From Psilocybe cubensis (lineage: Eukaryota), in NCBI GenBank assembly GCA_017499595.2, contig JAFIQS020000014.1:1-64000 (forward strand): 64,000 nt of DNA. Direction: 5' to 3'. A program made the position numbers and the translations under genes. The first letter of the stretch is position 1, and each line of letters opens with the position of its first letter. Below the pieces are notes generated by a model. It was not told the origin of the DNA. It worked only from the letters and a program-made list of their open reading frames with translations, and ran no database searches. Below, in pieces: positions 811 through 23,582 of the stretch.

Positions 811-1802
811 GCCACTGAAGAGTCTATAAAGACGAAAGGGCTGGTTGTTGGGATCCCCCAACAGCCCTCAAGTACTCGTCCTCTCCCAAACTCCTGCCGC
901 TTGTGCCTTCCCAACTCATCCGGGAGCCCTTTCGTCACTGATCTTGCCCTTGACTCGGGGACGTTTCATCGACATGTTGGCTGCCTCACGGCAAGCGGGG
1001 CCCTTTTTCTTTCACTCGCTCACGCCTTCTATGTTGGGTTACGGAGGTCATACAAACTCGTTTTAGTCTAGCTGCGGGGATATCCAGCTATGATGACTTT
1101 GTAATTCGAGGGCGCGCAGTTCTTCAATGGGTATGGACATCAGGTGAGAGTACACTGGGGGTTGTCAGGACCAGCTCTGCTGGATACGCTCCTGGCAAGT
1201 CGGTTGCAGCCGGCGACACTACCGAATTGCTGGGACGTCCTAAAGCTTGTGGGTACCGCCGACCGCTGGAAACAGCCTAGGCACCGGTGGCGACCGGGTA
1301 TGGTAACAATCCCCAAGATTCAGCGAAAGCTGGAATGGATAATCAGCAGCGAATCCGTAACGGTCACGCCGACGGAAGCGTTCAACGACTAGGTGGTAGT
1401 GGGGTCTTCGGATCTTAAGATATAGTCTTGGGAGTGGGGAAACCCACATCTGGTATCTAAACCGCGCCTCGCTGCTTACGAGGACGGCCCGAAGTCCAGA
1501 ACCGCTTAAAACGCGGGTGACCCGGCCTCCCCTTAGTAAAGGGAGTTAACACAAGGATGGACAAATAGTTCGTCGCCGGAAATGAACCTGTGGCTGTAAT
1601 GGCTGATGTGGCGCCCCTTGGTAAAGGGCTTAAAGGGTATTAGCCTGCCATGTCCAATGGCATGAGAGTGTCCCTTGGTAAAGGACTTAATAGGCAATAG
1701 CCTGCTCTTTTGTCATGAGCGGTATGTAGTGATCGTTTGCCTGTACGGTAGCGCCCATTGCTTGCACTGGTCCACGCCCGTAAAAAATCACGAGCCGCTG
1801 GC
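811..1802 (+). ncRNA. Type I hammerhead ribozyme split by a group I intron (exon halves 811-868 and 1798-1802)
   Basis: gcca-CTGAAGA-gtct ataa agac-GAAA-gggctg...cagcccT | insertion | Ctggc; joining 868 to 1798 regenerates the intact copy at 6157-6219. Confidence 0.9.
869..1797 (+). ncRNA. Group I intron (IC1-like), 929 nt, no homing endonuclease ORF
   Basis: P element AATTGCTGGG (~1225), Q AATCAGCAGC (~1341), R GTTCAACGACTA (~1380), S AAGATATAGTC (~1417); P3 cactacc/ggtagtg; P7 gacta/tagtc; P8 gggtc-ttcg-gatct; P9 gtggg-gaaa-cccac; 5' exon ends in U868, intron ends in G1797; IGS gggggttgt (1157-1165) pairs with acagccctc (861-869). Confidence 0.9.
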
Positions 1803-1911: not shown

Positions 1912-3070
1912 ATGTCATCCCAATACTCTGCTGCATTCTCTCGTGCCATGTCCCCTACCCTGGACGCACTCACCCAGGCCGTCGTCAACAACACTGTCTT
2001 CGGCGTCAACGATGAAGCAGGCCGCCATAACGCTCTTATCGACGAGCTGGCCACTGTGGTCATCAAAAAAATAGCTGAGTGCCGCTCCGTTGACCAAGTC
2101 ATAGACTGCGTCTTTTTTGACTATCGTGCTGCCCTCAGGGAGTTTCTCCTCAACCTCGCATCGTGGTGCGACAAGAGGGAAACAGTCAAGGCTAGCCTCG
2201 AGCGCCTTGAATCTGCCGTTAGCGCAGGCAACACGCCCAATCGCCTTAAGGTGAAGGCACCCGAGTTCCAACTTACGAAGGAATTCGCGGATGCCGGGTC
2301 AGCGGAGGCTCTTCGAGTCTCCACTACGTTCTCTTCCGCTCGTGATGCCTTCCAAAAGGCAATTAACGACGGCGCCGTTCAGGCGAAAAAGGACGAGCTG
2401 GCTTTTTGGGATGATAAATGCGCGCTCAACTCTTGCTACGAAGCTGCTGCCCTCATCGTTAAGGCAACTTACGATGATCGCAAATCCAGCTACAAGCTCC
2501 CTGTTTTCTCTACAGACAACAAGGGAGTTCGACGTATAGCAGAGTGGGTAGTGTCTCCGCAAAAGAAAGCCGAATGCAGTGCGCTGCAAACTATACTGCC
2601 GGCGATCTTTTCTCATATCAAACAGATTGTCAACATGCGCCACCGCGCCTTGGCAATTAAGATTGAGAAAAAGCGGACGACTGCGGCAACAGCCGATGTC
2701 GAGATGGCCGATGCGACCAAACCAGGTCCATCGATTCAATCCCTTATTGATAAGGGCTTGAATGCACGTCTCAAAAAGCTCAACCTTGGATCTGTGGGCA
2801 AGAAGGCAAGTTTTCGTAACCCTTCACCCATAATTCTGGACACTAATTATTACTCTAATTACCCAGACTTTGTCTGGCCAGAATTCGTCCAAGGCTCCTC
2901 AACCTCAGGCCAGGAAAGCTGGCCCTTCGAAACCCAAGTCGTCGTCGACGCCTTCGCAGAGGAAGCCTCAAACCAAGGCTTCCAACAAGGTCGACAACAA
3001 GAAGAAAGGGAAGGGGAGAGCTCCCGTCAAGAACAACGATCCAAAGGGAAAGGGAAAGGCAAGAGCCTAG
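1912..3070 (+). CDS. Predicted spliced ORF1 protein (join 1912-2805, 2867-3070; 365 aa) with Lys-rich C-terminal tail
   Basis: Spliced frame reads ...VGKK-TLSGQNSSKAPQPQ...KKKGKGRAPVKNNDPKGKGKARA*; open in all 7 copies. Confidence 0.65.
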
Positions 3071-5445
3071 ACGCGCGGTCTACTGTAGCATCATTTACGT
3101 CGGTGAGACCCGCCTTCCCCAACTCTATTCCTGACGATATACTCACCATGACTAAAACAGACGCAGTTTCTTTTGTACACCTCAATACCCCGATTTCATT
3201 CTTATTGGCTGGCCAGTATAGATCTAGTGTACACTGTAGTCCTGGTGTTTCGGTCCCTGTTGATGTAGCAAATGATTTATCTCTTGGACTCAATTATATG
3301 TTTTTTACACTGCCTTCTAAAAATCTGATCATGCAAGCATGGAATGATTTTCAACGAAGAATAAGATGGCGTATCTATTTTTTGTTTAAAGAAGGCATGA
3401 ATAAACCTTTCGATCCAGACTATGGAGTAAGCTCTAAAAAGAAAGAGAAACCTCCAATGTTACCGCAATTTATGGAACTTGGCCTTTCAATGGGACGTCG
3501 GTACGTTATTAAAACGATCGCAAGTATCCCGGAAGAAGCCCTTAAAGAGATGCGAAAGCACGCGTTCTCTCCTAAAAGGGACAAGATCCAAAAGTTTCTT
3601 TTCGATAACAACTATGTTATTACGATGACAGATAAGAATCTTGGCCTCGCGGTGTCTGAACGCGACTGGATATTAAGGAATGAGCTCAATCTTCTTGAAG
3701 ATGAACGCAACTACGAAGAGTTAGAATTCGAAGTTGCGCAAGAAGTTATGAAGAGCAAAATGATTCAGATGCAAACTCTCGCACGTACCGTCGAAGATGA
3801 ACATCTGTTTCTATTTGAACTTGGGTTGTCTCGATTCTTTCTATCGAATGTACCGGAAGACGGATCATCGTTCAAGTATCCTCAATTTCATGGTATACCT
3901 AAAATCCACAAGAAACCTACTGGATTTAGGCCCATAATTCCGTGTCACTCTGTAGTATTTAATCCTGCAGCCAAGTTTGTATCAAAAGAGCTTAAGCCGA
4001 TTATTAAATCGACTCCTTCAATCATTCACGGAACGAAGGATCTCTTTACGAGATTAAGCCAATTGCGTATAGACCCCAAACGACAATGGTATTTTGTCAC
4101 CGGGGATGTAGTTGCTTTCTATCCCAATATTCCGTTGGACTTGTGCATCGAAATCGTTTGTAATATGTACGAGGAATGGTTACTCAACGCTTCGGAAGAG
4201 AACACTGCATTAGCCCATATTAATCCAAATTCGTTAGAGAATAACTTGGTTAAATTGGGCATCTTTAAACGTGCTATCGAGATTGGCAATACGCAATTGA
4301 TAACACAACATGGGTCTAGATATTTTAGACAAAAAAATGGCCTCGCAATGGGCGTCGCGGATTCTCCGGACCTTGCTAACCTCTTTGGAGCCCATTTTGA
4401 AATAAAGTCAAAAATCTTAGACCACCCAAACGTGGCCTTCTATGGAAGGTACATCGACGATTGTTTCGCAATTGTTTACGCCGAGTCCGAAGCACTTGCA
4501 CTTAATCTTATTAAAGAAACAATAAAGTTCGATGGTTGTGTTATCGAATGGGCTGTTTCCTCGTCGGGATGTCAATTTCTCGATGCTTTCATATTCAAGG
4601 AGTCTGGAAAACTTCATTGGAAGCCATTTGTCAAGACAGGAAACAACCGAGAACGAGTTCCATGGGTATCACATCATCCTTTGGACGTCAAACGTGGCGT
4701 CTACATTGGAGAGTTATCCAGGTTAGCCGTGCTATGTAGTACTAAGGAAATCTACATCGGAGCAATTAGAGACCTTAACGCTCTCTATTTGATGCGCGGT
4801 TATCCCGAAAACCTAGTCATGTCTTGGTGTAAGAAGAATATACAAGAACGTTGGGAAAAGCGATTCGCTTTACGAGTCGCAGAGCACGACGAATCCATTC
4901 TTGTACTTAAAACCAGATTTGATCAGGTATGGAATTGGTTTTCAGCTGCTGAACTTGGAAAGACTGTTACCGAGTACTGGTCGGCATGGTATGAACATGC
5001 CGAGAAAGGTCTGTATAGTGCAGACTCGTCCAGACCCCTTATCAAACCAGATCCAAATTACGTTCACGACCTCGATGATGTTCGCCCGGAGCTGTTCACA
5101 CAGATCCTCGTGGACGGAGAAACTGAGTTCGTACCGGATTTGAGGAAGATAGGACTACTCGGAAGTCGTTGGATAGTATCGCGAAAGCGCAATACTAATC
5201 TTTTCGACCTTGCAAATGTGTGGAAGAAAACAGTCTTTCGTAAACTGGATGAAAACATCGCTGAAAAAGGTGGTGTTGTTCCCGAAACTCAAAACGTTAA
5301 TGAAACTTATCATTCTGCTCTAGTTGAAGCTGCTGAACAGATAAGTATCGAAAGTGATAACGAGATAATACTTCATAGACGTTCAATCTCACAAGAGAGG
5401 GAACATCCAGAATTCGGCAGAATATCCAAATTTTACAACCGATGA
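1912..5445 (+). CDS. Penelope-like element ORF1-reverse transcriptase polyprotein (1177 aa), no GIY-YIG endonuclease
   Basis: PLE-type RT motifs FHGIPKIHKKPTGFRPII, TGDVVAFYPNIP, RQKNGLAMGVADSPDLANLF, YGRYIDD, QFLD; helical/coiled-coil-like N-terminus; no GIY-YIG seen at the C-terminus. Confidence 0.95.
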   Translation: MSSQYSAAFSRAMSPTLDALTQAVVNNTVFGVNDEAGRHNALIDELATVVIKKIAECRSVDQVIDCVFFDYRAALREFLLNLASWCDKRETVKASLERLESAVSAGNTPNRLKVKAPEFQLTKEFADAGSAEALRVSTTFSSARDAFQKAINDGAVQAKKDELAFWDDKCALNSCYEAAALIVKATYDDRKSSYKLPVFSTDNKGVRRIAEWVVSPQKKAECSALQTILPAIFSHIKQIVNMRHRALAIKIEKKRTTAATADVEMADATKPGPSIQSLIDKGLNARLKKLNLGSVGKKASFRNPSPIILDTNYYSNYPDFVWPEFVQGSSTSGQESWPFETQVVVDAFAEEASNQGFQQGRQQEEREGESSRQEQRSKGKGKGKSLDARSTVASFTSVRPAFPNSIPDDILTMTKTDAVSFVHLNTPISFLLAGQYRSSVHCSPGVSVPVDVANDLSLGLNYMFFTLPSKNLIMQAWNDFQRRIRWRIYFLFKEGMNKPFDPDYGVSSKKKEKPPMLPQFMELGLSMGRRYVIKTIASIPEEALKEMRKHAFSPKRDKIQKFLFDNNYVITMTDKNLGLAVSERDWILRNELNLLEDERNYEELEFEVAQEVMKSKMIQMQTLARTVEDEHLFLFELGLSRFFLSNVPEDGSSFKYPQFHGIPKIHKKPTGFRPIIPCHSVVFNPAAKFVSKELKPIIKSTPSIIHGTKDLFTRLSQLRIDPKRQWYFVTGDVVAFYPNIPLDLCIEIVCNMYEEWLLNASEENTALAHINPNSLENNLVKLGIFKRAIEIGNTQLITQHGSRYFRQKNGLAMGVADSPDLANLFGAHFEIKSKILDHPNVAFYGRYIDDCFAIVYAESEALALNLIKETIKFDGCVIEWAVSSSGCQFLDAFIFKESGKLHWKPFVKTGNNRERVPWVSHHPLDVKRGVYIGELSRLAVLCSTKEIYIGAIRDLNALYLMRGYPENLVMSWCKKNIQERWEKRFALRVAEHDESILVLKTRFDQVWNWFSAAELGKTVTEYWSAWYEHAEKGLYSADSSRPLIKPDPNYVHDLDDVRPELFTQILVDGETEFVPDLRKIGLLGSRWIVSRKRNTNLFDLANVWKKTVFRKLDENIAEKGGVVPETQNVNETYHSALVEAAEQISIESDNEIILHRRSISQEREHPEFGRISKFYNR
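2806..2866 (+). other. Putative 61-nt GC-AG spliceosomal intron inside the ORF (also 7465-7525, 12608-12668, 17660-17720, 25246-25306, 30368-30428, 35675-35735)
   Basis: AAG|GCAAGT donor, CTAAT branch motifs, CCCAG| acceptor, AT-rich; removal joins codon 298 to the +1 frame ORF ending at 3070. Confidence 0.7.
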
Positions 5446-5555: not shown

Positions 5556-5630
5556 AGCTAAACCTAAACCCTAAACCCTAAACCCTAAACCCTAACCTAA
5601 CCCCAACCCTAAGCTAACTAAGTCTAACCT
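5556..5630 (+). repeat. Element-encoded degenerate reverse telomeric repeats in the 3' UTR (present in every unit)
   Basis: gctaaacctaaaccctaaaccctaaaccctaaaccctaacctaaccccaaccctaagctaactaag. Confidence 0.9.
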
Positions 5631-6156
5631 TAGTAGGAAGTAAGGTAGGCGTGTGAACTTCCGAACGGCATGTGATTGTGAAGGGCCGGATCTAATTTAG
5701 TACATGGGAAAAGTTACTTAGTACTTCGGGAAAAGTTCCTTAGTACCGTGGAAACATTTTTGATGGACCGGATCATGAACTGTCCAATTAAGATTCACAA
5801 CAATCAATCATTCTATTGTTTGATTGTTAGGTAAGGACCCAGGTAAGCTATTTATACTCTAGACATGTGAATATTCCCATGTCGCGGTTACTCGGAGCCA
5901 CGTAACCAGAGTAATCTATATCCATGTGATTCACATCACAGTCAATAACCCACGATGTCAAAGAACAAAAGTGTTGGATCCACTTTTGACAGGTTACCAT
6001 GTGCCACATCGACCCGTGACACTCTGTTCATCAGAGACCTGTCTAACTTGACAATAAACATTGACAGATTTGTGATAGTCGGTAAGATACATGACAGCTG
6101 CGCAGCATCACTTCACGCGCTGTCATCGGATGTCTAGAACATTCCTTCTAAGAATA

Positions 6157-6219
6157 GCCACTGAAGAGTCTATAAAGACGAAAGGGCTGGTTGTTGGGAT
6201 CCCCCAACAGCCCTCTGGC
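6157..6219 (+). ncRNA. Type I hammerhead ribozyme, intact (predicted cleavage after C6215)
   Basis: Helix I gcca/tggc, CUGAAGA, helix II gtct/agac, GAAA, helix III gggctg/cagccc, CUC triplet. Other intact copies start at 6399, 10816, 15962, 16596, 21007, 23449, 24182, 28593, 29304, 33714, 34611, 39033. Confidence 0.92.
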
Positions 6220-6290
6220 CTTCTTTCTATTTCAAACTCACAGTTTAAACTAGTCGCTCGCACCTCGCTTCGCTCGGTGCTCGCTCCCAC

Positions 6291-6348
6291 CCTAAACCCT
6301 AAACCCTAAACCCTAAACCCTAAAACCTAAACCCTAAACCCTAAACCC
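6291..6348 (+). repeat. Interstitial telomeric tract between units 1 and 2
   Basis: (CCCTAAA)n with one variant. Confidence 0.93.
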
Positions 6349-9300: not shown

Positions 9301-10951
9301 AACAACCGAGAACGAGTTCCATGGGTATCACATCATCCTTTGGACGTCAAACGTGGCGTCTACATTGGAGAGTTATCCAGGTTAGCCGTGCTATGTAGTA
9401 CTAAGGAAATCTACATCGGAGCAATTAGAGACCTTAACGCTCTCTATTTGATGCGCGGTTATCCCGAAAACCTAGTCATGTCTTGGTGTAAGAAGAATAT
9501 ACAAGAACGTTGGGAAAAGCGATTCGCTTTACGAGTCGCAGAGCACGACGAATCCATTCTTGTACTTAAAACCAGATTTGATCAGGTATGGAATTGGTTT
9601 TCAGCTGCTGAACTTGGAAAGACTGTTACCGAGTACTGGTCGGCATGGTATGAACATGCCGAGAAAGGTCTGTATAGTGCAGACTCGTCCAGACCCCTTA
9701 TCAAACCAGATCCAAATTACGTTCACGACCTCGATGATGTTCGCCCGGAGCTGTTCACACAGATCCTCGTGGACGGAGAAACTGAGTTCGTACCGGATTT
9801 GAGGAAGATAGGACTACTCGGAAGTCGTTGGATAGTATCGCGAAAGCGCAATACTAATCTTTTCGACCTTGCAAATGTGTGGAAGAAAACAGTCTTTCGT
9901 AAACTGGATGAAAACATCGCTGAAAAAGGTGGTGTTGTTCCCGAAACTCAAAACGTTAATGAAACTTATCATTCTGCTCTAGTTGAAGCTGCTGAACAGA
10001 TAAGTATCGAAAGTGATAACGAGATAATACTTCATAGACGTTCAATCTCACAAGAGAGGGAACATCCAGAATTCGGCAGAATATCCAAATCTTACAACCG
10101 ATGAAAAGAATACTAGCGCGTAAGGCGTAAAGCATTAGAAAAAAACCCTAACCGTAAGTATTCCTTGCTATAAAGTAACAAACATCTACTTACAAGCAAC
10201 ACTTTGGATTAAATAGCTAAACCTAAACCCTAAACCCTAAACCCTAAACCCTAACCTAACCCCAACCCTAAGCTAACTAAGTCTAACCTTAGTAGGAAGT
10301 AAGGTAGGCGTGTGAACTTCCGAACGGCATGTGATTGTGAAGGGCCGGATCTAATTTAGTACATGGGAAAAGTTACTTAGTACTTCGGGAAAAGTTCCTT
10401 AGTACCGTGGAAACATTTTTGATGGACCGGATCATGAACTGTCCAATTAAGATTCACAACAATCAATCATTCTATTGTTTGATTGTTAGGTAAGGACCCA
10501 GGTAAGCTATTTATACTCTAGACATGTGAATATTCCCATGTCGCGGTTACTCGGAGCCACGTAACCAGAGTAATCTATATCCATGTGATTCACATCACAG
10601 TCAATAACCCACGATGTCAAAGAACAAAAGTGTTGGATCCACTTTTGACAGGTTACCATGTGCCACATCGACCCGTGACACTCTGTTCATCAGAGACCTG
10701 TCTAACTTGACAATAAACATTGACAGATTTGTGATAGTCGGTAAGATACATGACAGCTGCGCAGCATCACTTCACGCGCTGTCATCGGATGTCTAGAACA
10801 TTCCTTCTAAGAATAGCCACTGAAGAGTCTATAAAGACGAAAGGGCTGGTTGTTGGGATCCCCCAACAGCCCTCTGGCCTTCTTTCTATTTCAAACTCAC
10901 AGTTTAAACTAGTCGCTCGCACCTCGCTTCGCTCGGTGCTCGCTCCCCCCC
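6348..10951 (+). mobile_element. Penelope-like element unit 2 (short 5' pLTR, no group I intron)
   Basis: Near-identical to unit 1 but lacking the 929-nt insertion. Confidence 0.92.
6571..10104 (+). CDS. PLE ORF1-RT polyprotein (1177 aa)
   Basis: Same RT motifs as unit 1. Confidence 0.95.
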   Translation: MSSQYSAAFSRAMSPTLDALTQAVVNNTVFGVNDEAGRHNALIDELATVVIKKIAECRSVDQVIDCVFFDYRAALREFLLNLASWCDKRETVKASLERLESAVSAGNTPNRLKVKAPEFQLTKEFADAGSAEALRVSTTFSSARDAFQKAINDGAVQAKKDELAFWDDKCALNSCYEAAALIVKATYDDRKSSYKLPVFSTDNKGVRRIAEWVVSPQKKAECSALQTILPAIFSHIKQIVNMRHRALAIKIEKKRTTAATADVEMADATKPGPSIQSLIDKGLNARLKKLNLGSVGKKASFRNPSPIILDTNYYSNYPDFVWPEFVQGSSTSGQESWPFETQVVVDAFAEEASNQGFQQGRQQEEREGESSRQEQRSKGKGKGKSLDARSTVASFTSVRPAFPNSIPDDILTMTKTDAVSFVHLNTPISFLLAGQYRSSVHCSPGVSVPVDVANDLSLGLNYMFFTLPSKNLIMQAWNDFQRRIRWRIYFLFKEGMNKPFDPDYGVSSKKKEKPPMLPQFMELGLSMGRRYVIKTIASIPEEALKEMRKHAFSPKRDKIQKFLFDNNYVITMTDKNLGLAVSERDWILRNELNLLEDERNYEELEFEVAQEVMKSKMIQMQTLARTVEDEHLFLFELGLSRFFLSNVPEDGSSFKYPQFHGIPKIHKKPTGFRPIIPCHSVVFNPAAKFVSKELKPIIKSTPSIIHGTKDLFTRLSQLRIDPKRQWYFVTGDVVAFYPNIPLDLCIEIVCNMYEEWLLNASEENTALAHINPNSLENNLVKLGIFKRAIEIGNTQLITQHGSRYFRQKNGLAMGVADSPDLANLFGAHFEIKSKILDHPNVAFYGRYIDDCFAIVYAESEALALNLIKETIKFDGCVIEWAVSSSGCQFLDAFIFKESGKLHWKPFVKTGNNRERVPWVSHHPLDVKRGVYIGELSRLAVLCSTKEIYIGAIRDLNALYLMRGYPENLVMSWCKKNIQERWEKRFALRVAEHDESILVLKTRFDQVWNWFSAAELGKTVTEYWSAWYEHAEKGLYSADSSRPLIKPDPNYVHDLDDVRPELFTQILVDGETEFVPDLRKIGLLGSRWIVSRKRNTNLFDLANVWKKTVFRKLDENIAEKGGVVPETQNVNETYHSALVEAAEQISIESDNEIILHRRSISQEREHPEFGRISKSYNR

Positions 10952-11012
10952 TAAAACCCCTAAACCCTAAACCCTAAACCCTAACCCTAAACCCTAAACC
11001 CTAAACCCTAAA
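10951..11012 (+). repeat. Interstitial telomeric tract
   Basis: (CCCTAAA)n with variants. Confidence 0.93.
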
Positions 11013-11602
11013 AGCCGGCGACACTACCGAATTGCTGGGACGTCCTAAAGCTTGTGGGTACCGCCGACCGCTGGAAACAGCCTAGGCACCGGTGGCGACC
11101 GGGTATGGTAACAATCCCCAAGATTCAGCGAAAGCTGGAATGGATAATCAGCAGCGAATCCGTAACGGTCACGCCGACGGAAGCGTTCAACGACTAGGTG
11201 GTAGTGGGGTCTTCGGATCTTAAGATATAGTCTTGGGAGTGGGGAAACCCACATCTGGTATCTAAACCGCGCCTCGCTGCTTACGAGGACGGCCCGAAGT
11301 CCAGAACCGCTTAAAACGCGGGTGACCCGGCCTCCCCTTAGTAAAGGGAGTTAACACAAGGATGGACAAATAGTTCGTCGCCGGAAATGAACCTGTGGCT
11401 GTAATGGCTGATGTGGCGCCCCTTGGTAAAGGGCTTAAAGGGTATTAGCCTGCCATGTCCAATGGCATGAGAGTGTCCCTTGGTAAAGGACTTAATAGGC
11501 AATAGCCTGCTCTTTTGTCATGAGCGGTATGTAGTGATCGTTTGCCTGTACGGTAGCGCCCATTGCTTGCACTGGTCCACGCCCGTAAAAAATCACGAGC
11601 CG
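11013..11602 (+). ncRNA. 5'-truncated second copy of the group I intron (catalytic core to omega-G; P1/IGS missing)
   Basis: Matches 1208-1797 by eye; ends ...cacgagccG|ctggc. Confidence 0.9.
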
Positions 11603-11713
11603 CTGGCTACTTTCCATTTAACTCCCAGTTTAAACTAGTCGCTCGCACCTCGCTTCGCTCGGTGCTCGCTCCCCCCCTAAACCCAACGACTTTGCTATTA
11701 TCCATCAGCCACT

Positions 11714-14700
11714 ATGTCATCTCAATACTCTGCTGCTTTCTCTCGTGCCATGTCCCCCACCCTGGACGCACTCACCCAGGCCGTCGTCAACAACACCGTT
11801 TTCGGCGTCAACGATGAAGCAGGCCGCCATAACGCTCTGATCGACGAGCTGGCCACTGTGGTCATCAAAAAAATAGCTGAGTGCCGCTCCGTTGACCAAG
11901 TCATAGACTGCGTCTTTTTTGACTATCGTGCTGCCCTTAGGGAGTTTCTCCTCAACCTCGCATCGTGGTGCGATAAGAGGGAAACAGTCAAGGCTAGCCT
12001 CGAGCGCCTTGAATCTGCCGTTAGCGCAGGCAACACGCCCAATCGCCTTAAGGTGAAGGCACCCGAGTTCCAACTTACGAAGGAATTCGCGGATGCCGGG
12101 TCAGCGGAGGCTCTTCGAGTCTCCACTACGTTCTCTACCGCTCGTGACGCCTTCCAAAAGGCAATTAACGACGGCGCCATTCAGGCGAAAAAGGACGAGC
12201 TGACTTTTTGGGATGATAAATGCGCACTCAACTCTTGCTACGAAGCTGCTGCCCTCATCGTTAAGGCAACTTACGATGATCGCAAATCCAGCTACAAGCT
12301 CCCTGTTTTCTCTACAGATAACAAGGGAGTTCGACGTATAGCAGAGTGGGTAGTGTCTCCGCAAAAGAAAGCCGAATGCAGTGCGCTGCAAACCATACTG
12401 CCGGCGATCTTTTCTCACATCAAACAAATTGTCAACATGCGCCACCGCGCTTTGGCAATTAAGATTGAGAAAAAGCGGACGACTGCGGCAACAGCCGATG
12501 TCGAGATGGCCGACGCGACCAAACCAGGTCCGTCGATTCAATCCCTTATTGATAAGGGCTTGAATGCACGTCTCAAGAAGCTCAACCTTGGATCTGTGGG
12601 CAAGAAGGCAAGTTTTCGTAACCCTTCACCCATAATTCTGGATACTAATTACTACTCTAATTACCCAGACTTTGTCTGGCCAGAATTCGTCCAAGGCTCC
12701 TCAACCTCAGGCCAAGAAAGCTGGCCCTTCGAAACCCAAGTCGTCGTCGACGCCTTCGCAACGCAAGCCTCAAACCAAGGCTTCCAACAAGGTCGACAAC
12801 AAGAAGAAAGGGAAGGGGAGAGCTCCCGTCAAGAACGATCCAAAGGGAAAGGGAAAGGCAAGAGCCTAGATGCGCGGTCTAATGTAGTACCTTTTACGTC
12901 GGTGAGACCCGCCTTCCCCAACTCTATTCCTGACGATATACTCACCATGACTAAAACAGACGCAGTTTCTTTCGTACACTTACATACTCCAATATCATTC
13001 TTGTTGGCTGGCCAGTATCGTAGTAGTGTACATTGTAGTCCTGGTGTTTCTGTCCCTGTTGATGTAGCAAACGATCTCTCTCTCGGACTTAATTATATGT
13101 TTTTCACTCTGCCTTCTAAAAGTCTGATCATGCAAGCATGGAATGATTTCCAACGAAGAATAAGATGGCGTATCTATTTTTTGTTTAAGGAAGGCATGAA
13201 TAAACCTTTTGATCCAGATTATGGAGTAAGCTCAAAAAAGAAAGAGAAACCTCCTGTATTACCGCAATATATGGAACTTGGCCTTTCGATGGGACGTCGG
13301 TACGTGCAACGCACGATCGCAAGTATCCCGGAAGAAGCCCTTACGGAGATGCGAAAGCACGCGTTCTCTCCTAAAAGGGACAAGATCCGTAAGTTTCTTA
13401 TCGATAACAACTATGTTATTACGATGACAGATAAGAATCTTGGCCTCGCGGTGTCTGAACGCGACTGGATATTAAGGAATGAGCTCAATCTTCTTGAAGA
13501 TGAACGTAATTACGAAGAGTTAGAATTCGAAGTTGCGCAAGAAGTTATGAAGAGCAAAATGATTCAGATGCAAACGCTCGCACGTACTGTCGAAGATGAA
13601 CATCTGTTTCTATTTGAACTTGGGTTGTCTCGATTCTTTCTATCGAATGTACCGGAAGACGGATCATCGTTCAAGTATCCTCAATTTCATGGTATACCTA
13701 AAATCCACAAGAAACCTACTGGATTTAGGCCCATAATTCCGTGTCACTCTGTAGTATTTAATCCTGCAGCCAAGTTTGTATCAAAAGAGCTTAAGCCGAT
13801 TATTAAATCGACTCCTTCAATCATACACGGAACGAAGGATCTCTTTACGAGATTAAGCCAATTGCGTATAGACTCCAAAAGACAATGGTATTTTGTCACT
13901 GGAGATGTAGTTGCTTTCTATCCCAATATTCCGTTGGACTTGTGCATCGAAATCGTTTATAGTATGTACGAGGAATGGTTACTCAACGCTTCGGAAGAAA
14001 ACACTGCATTAGCCCATATTAATCCAAATTCGTTAGAGAATAACTTGGTTAAATTGGGCATCTTTAAACGTGCTATCGAGATTGGCAATACGCAATTGAT
14101 AACACAACATGGGTCTAGATATTTTAGACAAAAAAATGGCCTCGCAATGGGCGTCGCGGATTCTCCGGACCTTGCTAACCTCTTTGGAGCCCATTTTGAA
14201 ATAAAGTCAAAAATCTTAGACCACCCAAACGTGGCCTTCTATGGAAGGTACATCGACGATTGTTTCGCAATTGTTTACGCCGAGTCCGAAGCACTTGCAC
14301 TTAATCTTATTAAAGAAACAATAAAGTTCGATGGTTGTGTTATCGAATGGGCTGTTTCCTCGTCGGGATGTCAATTTCTCGATGCTTTCATATTCAAGGA
14401 GTCTGGAAAACTTCATTGGAAGCCTTTTGTCAAGACAGGAAACAACCGAGAACGAGTTCCATGGGTATCACATCATCCTTTGGACGTCAAACGTGGCGTC
14501 TACATTGGAGAGTTATCCAGGTTAGCCGTGCTATGTAGTACCAAGGAAATCTACATCGGAGCAATTAGAGACCTTAACGCTCTCTATTTGATGCGCGGTT
14601 ATCCCGAAAACCTAGTCATATCTTGGTGTAAGAAGAATATACAAGAACGTTGGGAAAAGCGATTCGCTTTACGAGTCGCAGAGCACGACGAATCCATTCT

Positions 14701-15244
14701 TGTACTTAAAACCAGATTTGATCAGGTATGGAATTGGTTTTCAGCTGCTGAACTTGGAAAAACTGTTACCGAGTACTGGTCGGCATGGTATGAACATGCC
14801 GAGAAAGGTTTGTATAGTGCAGACTCGTCCAGACCCCTTATCAAACCAGATCCAAATTACGTTCACGACCTCGATGATGTTCGCCCGGAGCTGTTCACAC
14901 AGATCCTCGTGGACGGAGAAACTGAGTTCGTACCGGATTTGAGGAAGATAGGACTACTCGGAAGTCGTTGGATAGTATCGCGAAAACGCAATACTAATCT
15001 TTTCGACCTTGCAAATGTGTGGAAGAAAACAGTCTTTCGTAAACTGGATGAAGACATCGCTGAAAAAGGTGGTGTTGTTCCCGAAACTCAAAACGTTAAT
15101 GAAACTTATCATTCTGCTTTAGTTGAAGCTGCTGAGCAGATAAGTATCGAAAGTGATAACGAGATAATACTTCATAGACGTTCAATCTCACAAGAGAGGG
15201 AACATCCAGAATTTGGCAGAATATCCAAATCTTACAACCGATGA
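11714..15244 (+). CDS. PLE ORF1-RT polyprotein (1176 aa)
   Basis: Same RT motifs. Confidence 0.95.
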   Translation: MSSQYSAAFSRAMSPTLDALTQAVVNNTVFGVNDEAGRHNALIDELATVVIKKIAECRSVDQVIDCVFFDYRAALREFLLNLASWCDKRETVKASLERLESAVSAGNTPNRLKVKAPEFQLTKEFADAGSAEALRVSTTFSTARDAFQKAINDGAIQAKKDELTFWDDKCALNSCYEAAALIVKATYDDRKSSYKLPVFSTDNKGVRRIAEWVVSPQKKAECSALQTILPAIFSHIKQIVNMRHRALAIKIEKKRTTAATADVEMADATKPGPSIQSLIDKGLNARLKKLNLGSVGKKASFRNPSPIILDTNYYSNYPDFVWPEFVQGSSTSGQESWPFETQVVVDAFATQASNQGFQQGRQQEEREGESSRQERSKGKGKGKSLDARSNVVPFTSVRPAFPNSIPDDILTMTKTDAVSFVHLHTPISFLLAGQYRSSVHCSPGVSVPVDVANDLSLGLNYMFFTLPSKSLIMQAWNDFQRRIRWRIYFLFKEGMNKPFDPDYGVSSKKKEKPPVLPQYMELGLSMGRRYVQRTIASIPEEALTEMRKHAFSPKRDKIRKFLIDNNYVITMTDKNLGLAVSERDWILRNELNLLEDERNYEELEFEVAQEVMKSKMIQMQTLARTVEDEHLFLFELGLSRFFLSNVPEDGSSFKYPQFHGIPKIHKKPTGFRPIIPCHSVVFNPAAKFVSKELKPIIKSTPSIIHGTKDLFTRLSQLRIDSKRQWYFVTGDVVAFYPNIPLDLCIEIVYSMYEEWLLNASEENTALAHINPNSLENNLVKLGIFKRAIEIGNTQLITQHGSRYFRQKNGLAMGVADSPDLANLFGAHFEIKSKILDHPNVAFYGRYIDDCFAIVYAESEALALNLIKETIKFDGCVIEWAVSSSGCQFLDAFIFKESGKLHWKPFVKTGNNRERVPWVSHHPLDVKRGVYIGELSRLAVLCSTKEIYIGAIRDLNALYLMRGYPENLVISWCKKNIQERWEKRFALRVAEHDESILVLKTRFDQVWNWFSAAELGKTVTEYWSAWYEHAEKGLYSADSSRPLIKPDPNYVHDLDDVRPELFTQILVDGETEFVPDLRKIGLLGSRWIVSRKRNTNLFDLANVWKKTVFRKLDEDIAEKGGVVPETQNVNETYHSALVEAAEQISIESDNEIILHRRSISQEREHPEFGRISKSYNR

Positions 15245-19100: not shown

Positions 19101-21140
19101 TTAAATTGGGCATCTTTAAACGTGCTATCGAGATTGGCAATACGCAATTGATAACACAACATGGGTCTAGATATTTTAGACAAAAAAATGGCCTCGCAAT
19201 GGGCGTCGCGGATTCTCCGGACCTTGCTAACCTCTTTGGAGCCCATTTTGAAATAAAGTCAAAAATCTTAGACCACCCAAACGTGGCCTTCTATGGAAGG
19301 TACATCGACGATTGTTTCGCAATTGTTTACGCCGAGTCCGAAGCACTTGCACTTAATCTTATTAAAGAAACAATAAAGTTCGATGGTTGTGTTATCGAAT
19401 GGGCTGTTTCCTCGTCGGGATGTCAATTTCTCGATGCTTTCATATTCAAGGAGTCTGGAAAACTTCATTGGAAGCCATTTGTCAAGACAGGAAACAACCG
19501 AGAACGAGTTCCATGGGTATCACATCATCCTTTGGACGTCAAACGTGGCGTCTACATTGGAGAGTTATCCAGGTTAGCCGTGCTATGTAGTACCAAGGAA
19601 ATCTACATCGGAGCAATTAGAGACCTTAACGCTCTCTATTTGATGCGCGGTTATCCCGAAAACCTAGTCATGTCTTGGTGTAAGAAGAATATACAAGAAC
19701 GTTGGGAAAAGCGATTCGCTTTACGAGTCGCAGAGCACGACGAATCCATTCTTGTACTTAAAACCAGATTTGATCAGGTATGGAATTGGTTTTCAGCTGC
19801 TGAACTTGGAAAAACTGTTACCGAGTACTGGTCGGCATGGTATGAACATGCCGAGAAAGGTTTGTATAGTGCAGACTCGTCCAGACCCCTTATCAAACCA
19901 GATCCAAATTACGTTCACGACCTCGATGATGTTCGCCCGGAGCTGTTCACACAGATCCTCGTGGACGGAGAAACTGAGTTCGTACCGGATTTGAGGAAGA
20001 TAGGACTACTCGGAAGTCGTTGGATAGTATCGCGAAAACGCAATACTAATCTTTTCGACCTTACAAATGTGTGGAAGAAAACAGTCTTTCGTAAACTGGA
20101 TGAAGACATCGCTGAAAAAGGTGGTGTTGTTCCCGAAACTCAAAACGTTAATGAAACTTATCATTCTGCTTTAGTTGAAGCTGCTGAACAGATAAGTATC
20201 GAAAGTGATAACGAGATAATACTTCATAGACGTTCAATCTCACAAGAGAGGGAACATCCAGAATTCGGCAGAATATCCAAATCTTACAACCGATGAAAAG
20301 AATACTAGCGCGTAAGGCGTAAAGCATTAGAAAAAAACCCTAACCGTAAGTATTCCTTGCTACAAAGTAACAAACATCTACTTACAAGCAACACATTGGA
20401 TTAAATAGCTAAACCTAAACCTAAACCCTAAACCCTAAACCCTAAGCCCTAACCTAACCCCAACCCTAAGCTAACTAAGTCTAACCTTAGTAGGAAGTAA
20501 GGTAGGCGTGTGAACTTCCGAAAGGCATGTGATTGTGAAGGGCCGGATCTAATTTAGTACATGGGAAAAGTTACTTAGTACCTCGGGAAAAGTTCCTTAG
20601 TACCGTGGAAACATTTTTGATGGACCGGATCATGAACTGTCCAATTAAGATTCACAACAATCAATCAATTGATTGTTAGGTAAGGACCCAGGTAAGCTAT
20701 TTATACTCTTGACATGAGAATATTCCCATGTCACGGTTACTCGGAGCCACGTAACCAGAGTATTTTATATCCATGTGATTCACATCACAGTCAATAACCC
20801 ACGATGTCAAAGAACAAAAGTGTTGGATCCACTTTTGACAGGTTACCATGTGCCACATCGACCCGTGACACTCTGTTCATCAGAGATCTGTCTAACTTGA
20901 CAATAAACATTGACAGATTTGTGATAGTCGGTAAGATACATGACAGCTGCGCAGCATCACTTCACGCGCTGTCATCGGATGTTCCAGAACATTCCTTCTA
21001 AGAATAGCCACTGAAGAGTCTATAAAGACGAAAGGGCTGGCTGCTGATAACAATCAACAGCCCTCTGGCCTTCTTTCCATTTAACTCACAGTTTAAACAA
21101 GTCGCTCGCACCTCGCTTCGCTCGGTGCTCGCTCCCCCCC
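16171..21140 (+). mobile_element. Penelope-like element unit 4 (subfamily with MSSTY start and ctgataacaatc hammerhead loop)
   Basis: pLTR-ORF-pLTR between telomere tracts. Confidence 0.92.
16766..20296 (+). CDS. PLE ORF1-RT polyprotein (1176 aa)
   Basis: Same RT motifs. Confidence 0.95.
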   Translation: MSSTYSAAFSRAMSPTLDALTQAVVNNTVFGVNDEAGRHNALIDELATVVIKKIAECRSIDQIVDCVFFDYRAALREFLLNLASWCDKRETVKASLERLELAVSAGNTPNRLRVKAPEFQLTKEFADAGSAEALRVSSTFSTARDVFQKAINDGAIQAKKDELAFWDDKCALNNCYEAAALIVKTTYDDRKSSYKLPVFSTDNKGVRRITDWVVSPQKKAECSALQTILPAIFSHIKQIVNLRHRALAIKIEKKRSTAATADVEMADATKPGPSIQSLIDKGLNARLKKLNLGSVGKKASSRNPSPIILDTNYYSNYPDFVWPEFVQGSSTSGQESWPFEIQTLVDAFAEEAPNQGFQQGRQQEEREGESSRQERSKGKGKGKSLDARSNVVPFTSVRPAFPNSIPDDILTMTKTDAVSFVHLHTPISFLLAGQYRSSVHCSPGVVVPVDIANDLSLGLNYMFFTLPSQSLIMQAWNDFQRRIRWRIYFLFKEGMNKPFDPDYGVSSKKKEKPPVLPQYMELGLSMGRRYVQRTIASIPEEALTEMRKHAFSPKRDKIRKFLIDNNYVITMTDKNLGLAVSERDWILRNELNLLEDERNYEELEFEVAQEVMKSKMIQMQTLARTVEDEHLFLFELGLSRFFLSNVPEDGSSFKYPQFHGIPKIHKKPTGFRPIIPCHSVVFNPAAKFVSKELKPIIKSTPSIIHGTKDLFTRLSQLRIDPKRQWYFVTGDVVAFYPNIPLDLCIEIVCNMYEEWLLNASEENTALAHINPNSLENNLVKLGIFKRAIEIGNTQLITQHGSRYFRQKNGLAMGVADSPDLANLFGAHFEIKSKILDHPNVAFYGRYIDDCFAIVYAESEALALNLIKETIKFDGCVIEWAVSSSGCQFLDAFIFKESGKLHWKPFVKTGNNRERVPWVSHHPLDVKRGVYIGELSRLAVLCSTKEIYIGAIRDLNALYLMRGYPENLVMSWCKKNIQERWEKRFALRVAEHDESILVLKTRFDQVWNWFSAAELGKTVTEYWSAWYEHAEKGLYSADSSRPLIKPDPNYVHDLDDVRPELFTQILVDGETEFVPDLRKIGLLGSRWIVSRKRNTNLFDLTNVWKKTVFRKLDEDIAEKGGVVPETQNVNETYHSALVEAAEQISIESDNEIILHRRSISQEREHPEFGRISKSYNR

Positions 21141-21217
21141 TAAACCCTAAACCCTAAACCCTAAACCCTAAACCCTAAACCCTAAACCCTAAACCCTAAA
21201 CCCTAAACCCTAACCCT
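21138..21217 (+). repeat. Interstitial telomeric tract
   Basis: (CCCTAAA)n. Confidence 0.93.
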
Positions 21218-23582
21218 ATTTAGGCCCATAATTCCGTGTCACTCTGTAGTATTTAATCCTGCAGCCAAGTTTGTATCAAAAGAGCTTAAGCCGATTATTA
21301 AATCGACTCCTTCAATCATTCACGGAACGAAGGATCTCTTTACGAGATTAAGCCAATTGCGTATAGACCCCAAACGACAATGGTATTTTGTCACCGGGGA
21401 TGTAGTTGCTTTCTATCCCAATATTCCGTTGGACTTGTGCATCGAAATCGTTTGTAGTATGTACGAGGAATGGTTACTCAATGCTTCGGAAGAAAACACT
21501 GCATTAGCCCATATTAATCCAAATTCGTTAGAGAATAACTTGGTTAAATTGGGCATCTTTAAACGTGCTATCGAGATTGGCAATACGCAATTGATAACAC
21601 AACATGGGTCTAGATATTTTAGACAAAAAAATGGCCTCGCAATGGGCGTCGCGGATTCTCCGGACCTTGCTAACCTCTTTGGAGCCCATTTTGAAATAAA
21701 GTCAAAAATCTTAGACCACCCTAATGTGGCCTTCTATGGAAGGTACATCGACGATTGTTTTGCAATTGTTTACGCCGAGTCCGAAGCACTTGCACTTAAT
21801 TTAATTAAAGAAACAATAAAGTTCGATGGTTGTGTTATCGAATGGGCTGTTTCCTCGTCGGGATGTCAATTTCTCGATGCTTTCATATTCAAGGAGTCTG
21901 GAAAACTTCATTGGAAGCCTTTTGTCAAGACAGGAAACAACCGAGAACGAGTTCCATGGGTATCACATCATCCTTTAGACGTCAAACGTGGCGTTTACAT
22001 TGGAGAGTTATCCAGGTTAGCCGTGCTATGTAGTACCAAGGAAATCTACATTGGAGCAATTAGAGACCTTAACGCTCTCTATTTGATGCGCGGTTATCCC
22101 GAAAACCTAGTCATGTCTTGGTGTAAGAAGAATATACAAGAACGTTGGGAAAAGCGATTCGCTTTACGAATCGCAGAGCACGACGAATCCATTCTTGTAC
22201 TTAAAACCAGGTTTGATCAGGTATGGAATTGGTTTTCAGCTGCTGAACTTGGAAAAACTGTTACCGAGTACTGGTCGGCATGGTATGAACATGCCGAGAA
22301 AGGTCTGTATAGTGTAGACTCGTCCAGACCCCTTATCAAACCAGATCCAAATTACGTTCACGACCTCGATGATGTTCGCCCGGAGCTGTTCACACAGATC
22401 CTCGTGGACGGAGAAACTGAGTTCGTACCGGATTTGAGGAAGATAGGACTACTCGGAAGTCGTTGGATAGTATCGCGAAAGCGCAATACTAATCTTTTCG
22501 ACCTTGCAAATGTGTGGAAGAAAACAGTTTTTCGTAAACTGGATGAAGACATTGCCGAAAAAGGTGGTGTTGTTCCCGAAACTCAAAACGTTAATGAAAC
22601 TTATCATTCTGCTCTAGTTGAAGCTGCTGAACAGATAAGTATCGAAAGCGATAACGAGATAATACTTCATAGACGTTCAATCTCACAAGAGAGGGAACAT
22701 CCAGAATTCGGCAGAATATCCAAATCTTACAACCGATGAAAAGAATACTAGCGCTTAAGGCGTAAAGCATTAGAAAAAAACCCTAACCGTAAGTATTCAT
22801 TGCTATAAAGTAACAAACATCTACTTACAAGCAACACATTGGATTAAATAGCTAAACCTAAACCTAAACCCTAAACCCTAAACCCTAAGCCCTAACCTAA
22901 CCCCAACCCTAAGCTAACTAAGTCTAACCTTAGTAGGAAGTAAGGTAGGCGTGTGAACTTCCGAACGGCATGTGATTGTGAAGGGCCGGATCTAATTTAG
23001 TACATGGGAAAAGTTACTTAGTACTTCGGGAAAAGTTCCTTAGTACCGTGAAAACATTTTTGATGGACCGGATCATGAACTGTCCAATTAAGATTCACAA
23101 CAATCAATCAATTGATTGTTAGGTAAGGACCCAGGTAAGCTATTTATACTCTTGACATGTGAATATTCCCATGTCGCGGTTACTCGGAGCCACGTAACCA
23201 GAGTAATCTATATCCATGTGATTCACATCACAGTCAATAACCCACGATGTCAAAGAACAAAAGTGTTGGATCCACTTTTGACAGGTTACCATGTACCACA
23301 TTGACCCGTGACACTCTGTTCATCAGAGACCTGTCTAACTTGACAATAAACATTGACAGATTTGTGATAGTCGGTAAGATACATGACAGCTGCACAGCAT
23401 CACTTCACGCGCTGTCATCGGATGTCTAGAACATTCCTTCTAAGAATAGCCACTGAAGAGTCTATAAAGACGAAAGGGCTGGTTGTTGGTACCCCCCAAC
23501 AGCCCTCTGGCCTTCTTTCCATTTAACTCACAGTTTAAACAAGTCGCTCGCACCTCGCTTCGCTCGGTGCTCGCTCCCCCCC
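21218..23582 (+). mobile_element. 5'-truncated element (starts mid-RT at FRPIIP), capped by telomere repeats
   Basis: taaccct|atttaggcccataattcc junction; RT C-terminal half to 22739, then full 3' UTR. Confidence 0.92.

Follow-up and report, generated by a model that had tools for sequence, protein, structure and literature searches.

Positions 1 to 64,000 (forward strand) of contig JAFIQS020000014.1 from Psilocybe cubensis (assembly GCA_017499595.2), which we call the window, begin at a chromosome end. After terminal telomere repeats, from ~170 to ~39,200, members of one retroelement family are arrayed head to tail, with seven open reading frames (ORFs) of 1176-1177 aa and additional truncated copies. 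The ORFs are spaced by ~645-bp repeats and short telomere tracts. By its architecture, the family appears to be a telomere-attached, endonuclease-less Penelope-like retroelement (PLE) of Athena/Coprina type. The terminal repeat of such an element is referred to as a pLTR, and is divided here into U3 (the equivalent of 310-868) and R (the equivalent of 1798-1882). In the first pLTR of the first element (copy 1), U3 and R are separated by a 929-nt insertion, which is a bona fide group I intron with its core and P1 intact, and the site of the insertion lies within a hammerhead motif. The features of this part of the window are:

1-165, + strand: terminal telomere repeats (CCCTAAA)n, C-rich strand, with the chromosome end on the left
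310-868, + strand: U3 of the 5' pLTR of copy 1, the 5' exon (559/559 identical to the intron-less pLTRs at 5656 and 10315)
811-868, + strand: 5' portion of the hammerhead motif (GCCA at 811-814, CUGAAGA at 815-821, GAAA at 834-837, U16.1 at 868)
G811-A814, 822-824/831-833 and 838-867, + strand: hammerhead helices I, II and III, respectively (motif mapping)
869-1797, + strand: group I intron, 929 nt, with the terminal guanosine (omega-G) at G1797 (RF00028 and comparison of junctions)
1798-1802, + strand: C17 of the hammerhead motif (1798) and the 3' strand of helix I, UGGC (1799-1802; motif mapping)
1798-1882, + strand: R of type a, the 3' exon, which ends in CCCCCCCTAAACCC (self-comparison of pLTRs)
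1912-5445, + strand: PLE reverse-transcriptase ORF, 1177 aa, 99% identical to P. cubensis proteins
5656-6299, + strand: 3' pLTR of copy 1, intron-less and carrying a complete hammerhead motif (6157-6219)

Borders of the insertion and the host element

The interrupted junction is present in uninterrupted form throughout the array. The + strand has 13 occurrences of the intact-junction 16-mer CAACAGCCCTCTGGCC, of which 10 are exact and 3 have one mismatch, compared with an expectation of 0.03. When 300-1910 was compared with the window by self-BLAST, all other pLTRs aligned with 310-869 and resumed at 1795/1798, so the extra DNA is 869-1797. It follows T868 and its last base is G1797. Its placement is ambiguous by one base (C), and there is no target duplication of more than 1 nt. 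The R of copy 1 is identical over 73 compared nt to that of the intron-less pLTRs at 6161, 6403 and 10820, and the ORFs of copy 1 and of the intron-less copy 2 differ at 2 of 3534 positions. Given this near-identity, the difference between presence and absence must be recent and precise. Between pLTRs that otherwise show no difference over U3 (559 nt) and the compared part of R (73 nt), the presence or absence of the intron is exact to the base. A preliminary description of this DNA had counted 13 intact pLTRs against one interrupted copy, and had reported a clean 929-nt insertion after a U, ending in G and lacking a target duplication. The count is borne out by the 16-mer and the self-BLAST, and the borders are exact when set against the 13 junctions.

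The telomere unit at 1-165, at 236-311 and in all tracts between elements is the 7-nt CCCTAAA (TTTAGGG on the other strand; 98 20-mer matches). The usual fungal unit is the 6-nt TTAGGG. Every 3' pLTR runs from R into CCCCCC and then into (CTAAACC)n. At their 5' ends, copies are capped by telomere repeats at variable points, namely at U3 positions 310, 380 and 760, at ~21214 in an ORF, and inside the intron. The element at 21214-22739, for instance, is 5'-truncated within the reverse-transcriptase ORF (leaving a 460-aa remnant) and abuts telomere repeats at 21138-21213, a capping like that of the truncated intron described below. A partly degenerate telomere-like tract also lies between the 3' untranslated region and U3 in every element (5562-5610 in copy 1).

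Reverse-transcriptase motifs, including YIDD, can be read in the translation of 1912-5445. The 99%-identical database proteins carry the precomputed families PF00078, PF28514 and PF26215, and one is named 'Reverse transcriptase domain-containing protein'. A Pfam scan of the ORF returned no family even at E 10, and a PDB sequence search with it gave no match. No GIY-YIG endonuclease domain came out of that Pfam scan, which missed the reverse transcriptase too. Endonuclease-less Athena/Coprina PLEs are described as attaching to telomeres via reverse-complement telomere repeats and as having hammerhead motifs (PMC8557442). We provisionally assign the host to this type because its array, its telomere-joined 3' ends and its hammerhead-bearing pLTRs fit that description. 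The earlier view of the host as a telomeric PLE therefore stands, given the telomere-joined array, the reverse-transcriptase ORF and the pLTRs.

A group I intron and a hammerhead motif

The Rfam model of group I introns (RF00028) recognises 1153-1449 with 70.9 bits and E 5.6e-16, above its gathering score of 50. In a base-by-base check, P2, P2.1 and P3 to P9 consist of standard pairs only. We take the layout to be IC1-like, a subgroup label that we assume from the architecture. The parts of the intron are:

878-1147, + strand: L1 insertion, 270 nt, between the 5' splice site and the guide sequence (base-by-base helix check)
1148-1165, + strand: guide-sequence strand of P1 (1156-1165 with A861-A870, and 1148-1153 with 872-877)
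1166-1214, + strand: P2 (1166-1170/1190-1194, with an inner hairpin) and P2.1 (1199-1203/1210-1214), from the base-by-base check
1217-1447, + strand: catalytic core, P3 to P9 (RF00028 and base-by-base check)
1217-1224/1394-1401, + strand: P3, 8 bp
1228-1233/1343-1348, + strand: P4, 6 bp
1237-1240/1337-1340, + strand: P5, 4 bp, with a P5abc-like extension (1241-1336) that has GAAA loops
1354-1357/1373-1376, + strand: P6, 4 bp
1387-1391/1423-1427, + strand: P7, 5 bp, GACUA/UAGUC, from the conserved R and S elements
1403-1406/1411-1414, + strand: P8, 4 bp, with a UUCG loop
1434-1438/1443-1447, + strand: P9, 5 bp, with a GAAA loop
1448-1796, + strand: 3' peripheral extension, 350 nt, with repeated CCCUUGGUAAAGGG-type hairpins (inspection of the sequence and helix check)

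P1 is formed by A861-A870 (exon bases A861-U868 and intron bases C869-A870) with U1156-U1165, so that the splice site has a U868·G1158 wobble. The helix is extended by pairing of G872-C877 with G1148-C1153, and the energy of the duplex is -24.4 kcal/mol. No other run in the intron is as long as the 8 bp anchored at U868 (the runner-up has 6 bp). Among 2000 shuffles, 10 gave an anchored 8-bp run in the 40-nt zone upstream of P2, and 142 gave one anywhere in the intron. When 800-1216 was folded without constraints, P1 was present in both the minimum-energy and the centroid structures, despite the competing helix III of the hammerhead motif. The preliminary description had recognised a group I core with P3, P7, P8 and P9, a guide sequence that pairs with the 5' exon to place the wobble at the splice site, and a P1 lengthened by a second intron pairing. 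All of this is upheld by the above-threshold RF00028 match, the helix check, the pairing itself, the shuffles and the fold. On its sequence, the intron probably is, or recently was, catalytically active.

A homing endonuclease gene was looked for by a Pfam scan of 10 of the 15 stop-to-stop frames of at least 45 aa (the other five being the shortest or overlapping), and nothing above threshold was found. Endonuclease-driven homing by the intron itself is thus unlikely.

In the hammerhead motif, the intron lies between U16.1 (868) and C17 (1798), as had been claimed before and as motif mapping confirms. It is one base 5' of the predicted scissile bond, since cleavage is predicted between 1798 and 1799, one base 3' of the 3' splice site. 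The arrangement GCCA-CUGAAGA-GUC(UAUAAA)GAC-GAAA-helix III-U-C/UGGC (with the slash at the cleavage site) is common to 14 of 14 pLTRs that retain the region. Within it, the conserved core CUGAAGA, GAAA, the A837-U868 pair and C17 are invariant in all 14 motif-bearing pLTRs. Helix I has 4 bp (GCCA/UGGC), helix II has 3 bp, and helix III is long, its base comprising 7 bp; for the intact copy, the centroid structure is a three-way junction. The hammerheads of fungal PLE pLTRs are described as type I with a large helix III, and the one from Serpula lacrymans as cleaving as a monomer in vitro (PMC4209133), a source that also bears out the earlier statement that PLEs carry hammerheads in their pLTRs. 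Judged by these residues and helices, the motif is a hammerhead motif of the fungal PLE kind, type I, rather than a proven ribozyme.

Helix III (6183-6214) has an alternative, shifted register of 10 bp, GGUUGUUGGG/CCCAACAGCC, which would exclude the active conformation. Covariation in helix III across pLTR variants was considered and rejected, because the only part to fold in each of the three variants is the base of the helix, which does not vary, and the distal part is predicted to be open in variant B. A solo R at 167-245 has telomere repeats on both sides and starts 3-5 nt from the predicted cleavage site. This single instance resembles the expected cDNA of a hammerhead-cleaved 3' fragment, and may be a hint of one.

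A second intron copy and independent reads

The window contains a second copy of the intron, in an element that we refer to as copy 3. RF00028 matches it at 10915-11254 with 71.0 bits, and the match is genuine intron from 11013 on only. Its surroundings are:

10958-11012, + strand: telomere repeats capping the second intron copy (repeat search)
11013-11602, + strand: second intron copy, 5'-truncated within P2.1 and equivalent to 1208-1797 (RF00028 and alignment)
11603-11680, + strand: R of type b, which follows the second intron copy (alignment to copy 1)

The second copy is identical to the first at 590 of 590 bases. It has neither P1 nor the guide sequence nor the hammerhead's 5' half, and it cannot splice, because it is truncated at its 5' end, with telomere repeats running into the equivalent of position 1208. 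Given that it starts inside the intron right after telomere repeats, like other truncated elements, an intron-bearing element must once have been at the chromosome end. Downstream of the intron, 12 of 118 alignment columns differ from copy 1, the first at exon base +6, compared with 0 of 590 inside it (Fisher p 2.5e-10). Between the ORFs of copies 3 and 1 there are 99 differences in 3534 positions. That of copy 3 (11714-15244) is itself a mosaic relative to that of copy 1, with 12, 11, 37, 23, 8, 3, 6 and 2 differences in successive 500-nt segments.

These patterns bear on whether the intron could have spread as DNA, by ectopic gene conversion, by telomeric break-induced replication or with the help of a homing endonuclease encoded elsewhere. 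Near-identical telomeric repeats are good substrates for recombination, and the mosaic ORF of copy 3 fits such exchange. However, identity with copy 1 stops 5 nt past the 3' splice site, so there is no co-converted flank. A first insertion outside ribosomal DNA (rDNA) would also still need an RNA route or an endonuclease, and none was found in the intron. Nor is the head-to-tail junction described below predicted by spread at the DNA level, which we consider very improbable.

Outside the assembly, the stretch or a part of it was found in 17 of 23 listed public runs from 8 studies, 10 of which hold at least half of the sampled words. Four runs were aligned to 312-2400 at 90% likeness. Among the raw DNA reads of run X20, the mean depth is ~1336 over U3, ~102 over the intron, where it is even, and ~357 over the ORF. 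The depth of the intron thus amounts to 7.6% of that of U3 and 29% of that of the ORF, which corresponds to an intron in ~8% of pLTRs and to ~3 copies per genome (1632 million letters were read, and contigs of sibling runs total 41-47 million letters). Given this low depth, the rDNA repeats of that strain contain no copy of the intron that is at least 90% alike. Contigs of two other organisms (runs X8 and X10) hold pieces of the intron. One X10 contig spans 1280-1840, across the 3' junction at 1797/1798, and X10 has two versions of 1012-1164, which differ from the window at 3 and 13 positions. Several strains, then, have the intron in their DNA, at a low number of copies.

Near-identical arrays of telomeric elements are hard to assemble, and an intron from rDNA or from the mitochondrion could in principle have been misjoined into a repeat-rich telomere assembly. 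Such an artefact would not account for the even ~102-fold coverage in X20, which is far from an rDNA-like excess, for the presence of the stretch in 17 of the 23 runs, for the X10 contig that bridges 1797/1798, or for two intron copies with different flanks in one window. We give this explanation hardly any credence.

Variants of intermediate frequency in X20 indicate several slightly different copies of the intron. Among the listed variants (94 further substitutions lie beyond these), the core substitutions are G>A at 1234 and 1392, both in joining regions and towards the Rfam consensus, U>C at 1413, which turns G1404·U1413 into a G-C pair, and one at 1429, which is unpaired. The indels listed for the intron, four of four, are in L1.

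In nine X20 reads, which have 7 different starts and a shorter side of up to 74 nt, 1797 is followed directly by 869, so that the exact termini of the insertion recur. This head-to-tail junction is expected from reverse splicing of the intron into the 5' splice site of an unspliced precursor, in which the base after ...CCCU is also a C, or from a full-length intron circle, which is part of the circularisation pathway set out in a review of these introns (PMC3679873). Ordinary DNA recombination does not predict it.

In one scan of metagenomes for the R...S motif pair, likeness never extended beyond the core at any of 120 loci (the best was 81% over 54 nt), and none of these loci carries a PLE reverse transcriptase or a pLTR.

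Proposed mobility through RNA and a split hammerhead

We suspect that a mobile group I intron without an endonuclease entered the RNA of a PLE by reverse splicing, was fixed in DNA by the reverse transcriptase of the element, and splits the hammerhead until it is spliced out; this seems to us the likely history. In this scenario, free intron RNA would reverse-splice into PLE RNA after ...ACAGCCCU, guided by its 10-nt guide sequence, and the element's own reverse transcriptase would copy the intron-bearing RNA onto a chromosome end. The PLE would thereby supply the reverse-transcription and integration steps that the intron lacks in rDNA, and the intron would persist at a few copies per genome amid a much larger population of pLTRs. 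In unspliced RNA, the hammerhead would be split by 929 nt, with the 3' strand of helix III taken up by P1, and should not cleave. Once spliced, the pLTR would match the intron-less ones exactly and would have its hammerhead back. Entry by reverse splicing, splicing at present and gating of the hammerhead are what we infer, and the gating, which the preliminary description had already proposed, would follow from the geometry, given the predicted activities of the two ribozymes. A fuller version, in which the intron is an active mobile ribozyme that escaped from rDNA, reverse-splices into PLE RNA at the hammerhead site as well as into its own unspliced precursor (whence the head-to-tail junction), is retro-mobile via the PLE and serves also as a splicing-dependent hammerhead switch, is tentative, and we doubt it somewhat more than we believe it.

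Several observations weigh against these proposals. The DNA of the window preserves two unspliced copies of the intron, which means that splicing is incomplete at best. The P10 pairing is poor: beside the guide sequence only C1798-G1157 pairs, and a shifted 6-bp pairing with 1142-1148 amounts to -7.8 kcal/mol. Folding could be slowed by two unusual features, the L1 insertion of 270 nt and the 3' tail of 350 nt. The evidence for the 1797>869 junction is limited to the nine reads of one run. Among the listed runs, the sole recorded-RNA holder of the stretch, X16 (0.07 of the words), gave a single contig, which lacks the intron, and two possible RNA runs under the species label hold next to none of the sampled words. 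A spliced product would moreover be indistinguishable from transcripts of intron-less pLTRs, because the two are identical in sequence. The X16 match itself is a 178-nt metatranscriptome contig (748-869 and 1818-1856) with a pLTR variant that may be spliced or may never have been interrupted, and that may stem from RNA or from contaminating DNA; it is uncut across the hammerhead site.

Many of these points would suit a dead passenger, that is, an intron that entered once by reverse splicing, lost its ability to splice and has since been copied by retrotransposition and telomeric recombination, with the intron-less pLTRs representing an older state or gene conversion. One of the two unspliced copies is truncated and certainly dead, P10 is weak, the L1 and 3' extensions are large, and the X16 contig is an intron-less or a spliced form. 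However, the core scores 70.9 bits with all helices intact, and P1 pairs perfectly over 10 + 6 bp, its wobble being where it should be. Among the listed variants, pairings are spared or improved and indels are confined to L1, and gene conversion leaves the direct 1797>869 DNA junction unexplained. We consider this alternative unlikely, if clearly less so than spread at the DNA level.

The pLTRs add a further reason for caution about mobility. The U3 and R types of intron-less pLTRs occur in five combinations (A+a, A+b, B+c, B+e and A'+c), and the U3 of the 3' pLTR of copy 3 differs from that of copy 1 at 1 of 559 bases. Reassortment of U3 and R is seen at the pLTRs at 6161, 15966, 16600, 23453, 34615 and others, with the switch within an invariant ~14 nt around the cleavage site. 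Given that it occurs without an intron, the hammerhead site is a general boundary between pLTR halves, and mosaics require no mobility of the intron, a point in favour of a dead passenger. Perhaps the halves are joined near the cleavage site from different templates, via template switching, and the intron may simply travel with the U3 side. We had at one time taken the identical intron in divergent elements as proof of intron mobility, and have downgraded this argument because U3 and R types reassort in intron-less pLTRs too. The identity of the two copies could also stem from polishing of a repeat-rich assembly. Neither the second copy (11013-11602) nor the general role of the hammerhead site as a pLTR joint featured in the preliminary description.

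Other points concern the hammerhead. The RF03152 and RF00008 covariance models match the motif only below threshold (25.3 bits against 56.3 for RF03152, and 19.5 against 48.5 for RF00008; in an Rfam scan of the whole window, RF03152 scored 29.1 bits, E 0.92). There is no covariation among the pLTR hammerheads, in which paired positions are invariant. In the only PLE described as assayed in vitro, hammerhead mutants still insert (PMC11167929), so gating may matter little to the element. By analogy with that PLE, a disabled hammerhead need not stop the element, which fits the finding of unspliced DNA copies and reduces the functional importance that gating could have.

The proposal of RNA-level mobility can be compared with several known systems. 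According to reviews, all known nuclear group I introns are in rDNA (PMC3679873, PMC8395846, PMC9223047), in agreement with what had been stated earlier for this locus. A full-text literature search, covering few subscription journals, gave no report of a group I intron in a PLE or in another retrotransposon. The Psilocybe intron resembles nuclear rDNA introns such as the Tetrahymena large-subunit intron (IC1) in its ribozyme family, as judged by the covariance model, and in the U·G wobble of P1, the terminal G, P2/P2.1, the P5abc-like extension, the R/S P7 and the GAAA L9. Like it, most of them are without an endonuclease gene. It differs from them in its host, a non-coding retrotransposon terminal repeat that is presumably transcribed outside the rDNA unit, in its ~3 copies, and in its 270-nt L1 insertion and 350-nt 3' tail.

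Nested ribozymes in which one conditions the other are known from twin-ribozyme introns (Didymium Dir.S956-1 and Naegleria Nae.S516), where a group I-derived capping ribozyme is described in a peripheral loop of the splicing ribozyme (PMC3679873, PMC1464144). In Psilocybe, by contrast, the splicing ribozyme is inside the catalytic core of the hammerhead, and it is the outer motif that is physically split. Among PLE hammerheads, the likeness is to the type I motifs in pLTRs with a large helix III as in fungal PLEs (PMC4209133). The same source describes a spliceosomal intron in Penelope of Drosophila virilis that ends at helix I, so that spliced and unspliced forms give different hammerheads. 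The intron of Psilocybe differs in that it is itself a ribozyme by family and lies one base from the scissile bond, and in that the hammerhead motif it interrupts is a predicted one, below the Rfam thresholds.

The proposed cycle is also similar to group II retrohoming in that ribozyme reverse splicing would be coupled to cDNA synthesis and integration. Group II introns have their own reverse transcriptase and reverse-splice into DNA, whereas the Psilocybe intron would borrow the reverse transcriptase and the telomere priming of its host element and would insert into RNA.

The closest parallel is the RNA-level mobility proposed for nuclear group I introns, with guide-directed reverse splicing into a heterologous RNA, reverse transcription and integration (PMC1299323, PMC3679873). 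For rDNA, one of these sources states that the complete pathway still lacks evidence (PMC3679873). The Psilocybe intron differs from the rDNA case in that its recipient RNA is by nature reverse-transcribed and integrated, so that the missing steps would be built in, and this makes the question of RNA-level mobility testable at this locus.

From the perspective of chromosome ends, the intron adds a third layer of parasitism, being an intron in a retroelement in a telomere. It is apparently the first large self-splicing ribozyme in the catalytic core of a small self-cleaving one, within the literature searched, and the pair may constitute a natural two-ribozyme logic element. The locus offers a natural test of the spread of group I introns through RNA, in one cultivable fungus and with few transcripts to follow. 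If the fuller version of our proposal is true, the RNA-level mobility pathway that has long been proposed for group I introns would here be found complete in nature for the first time.

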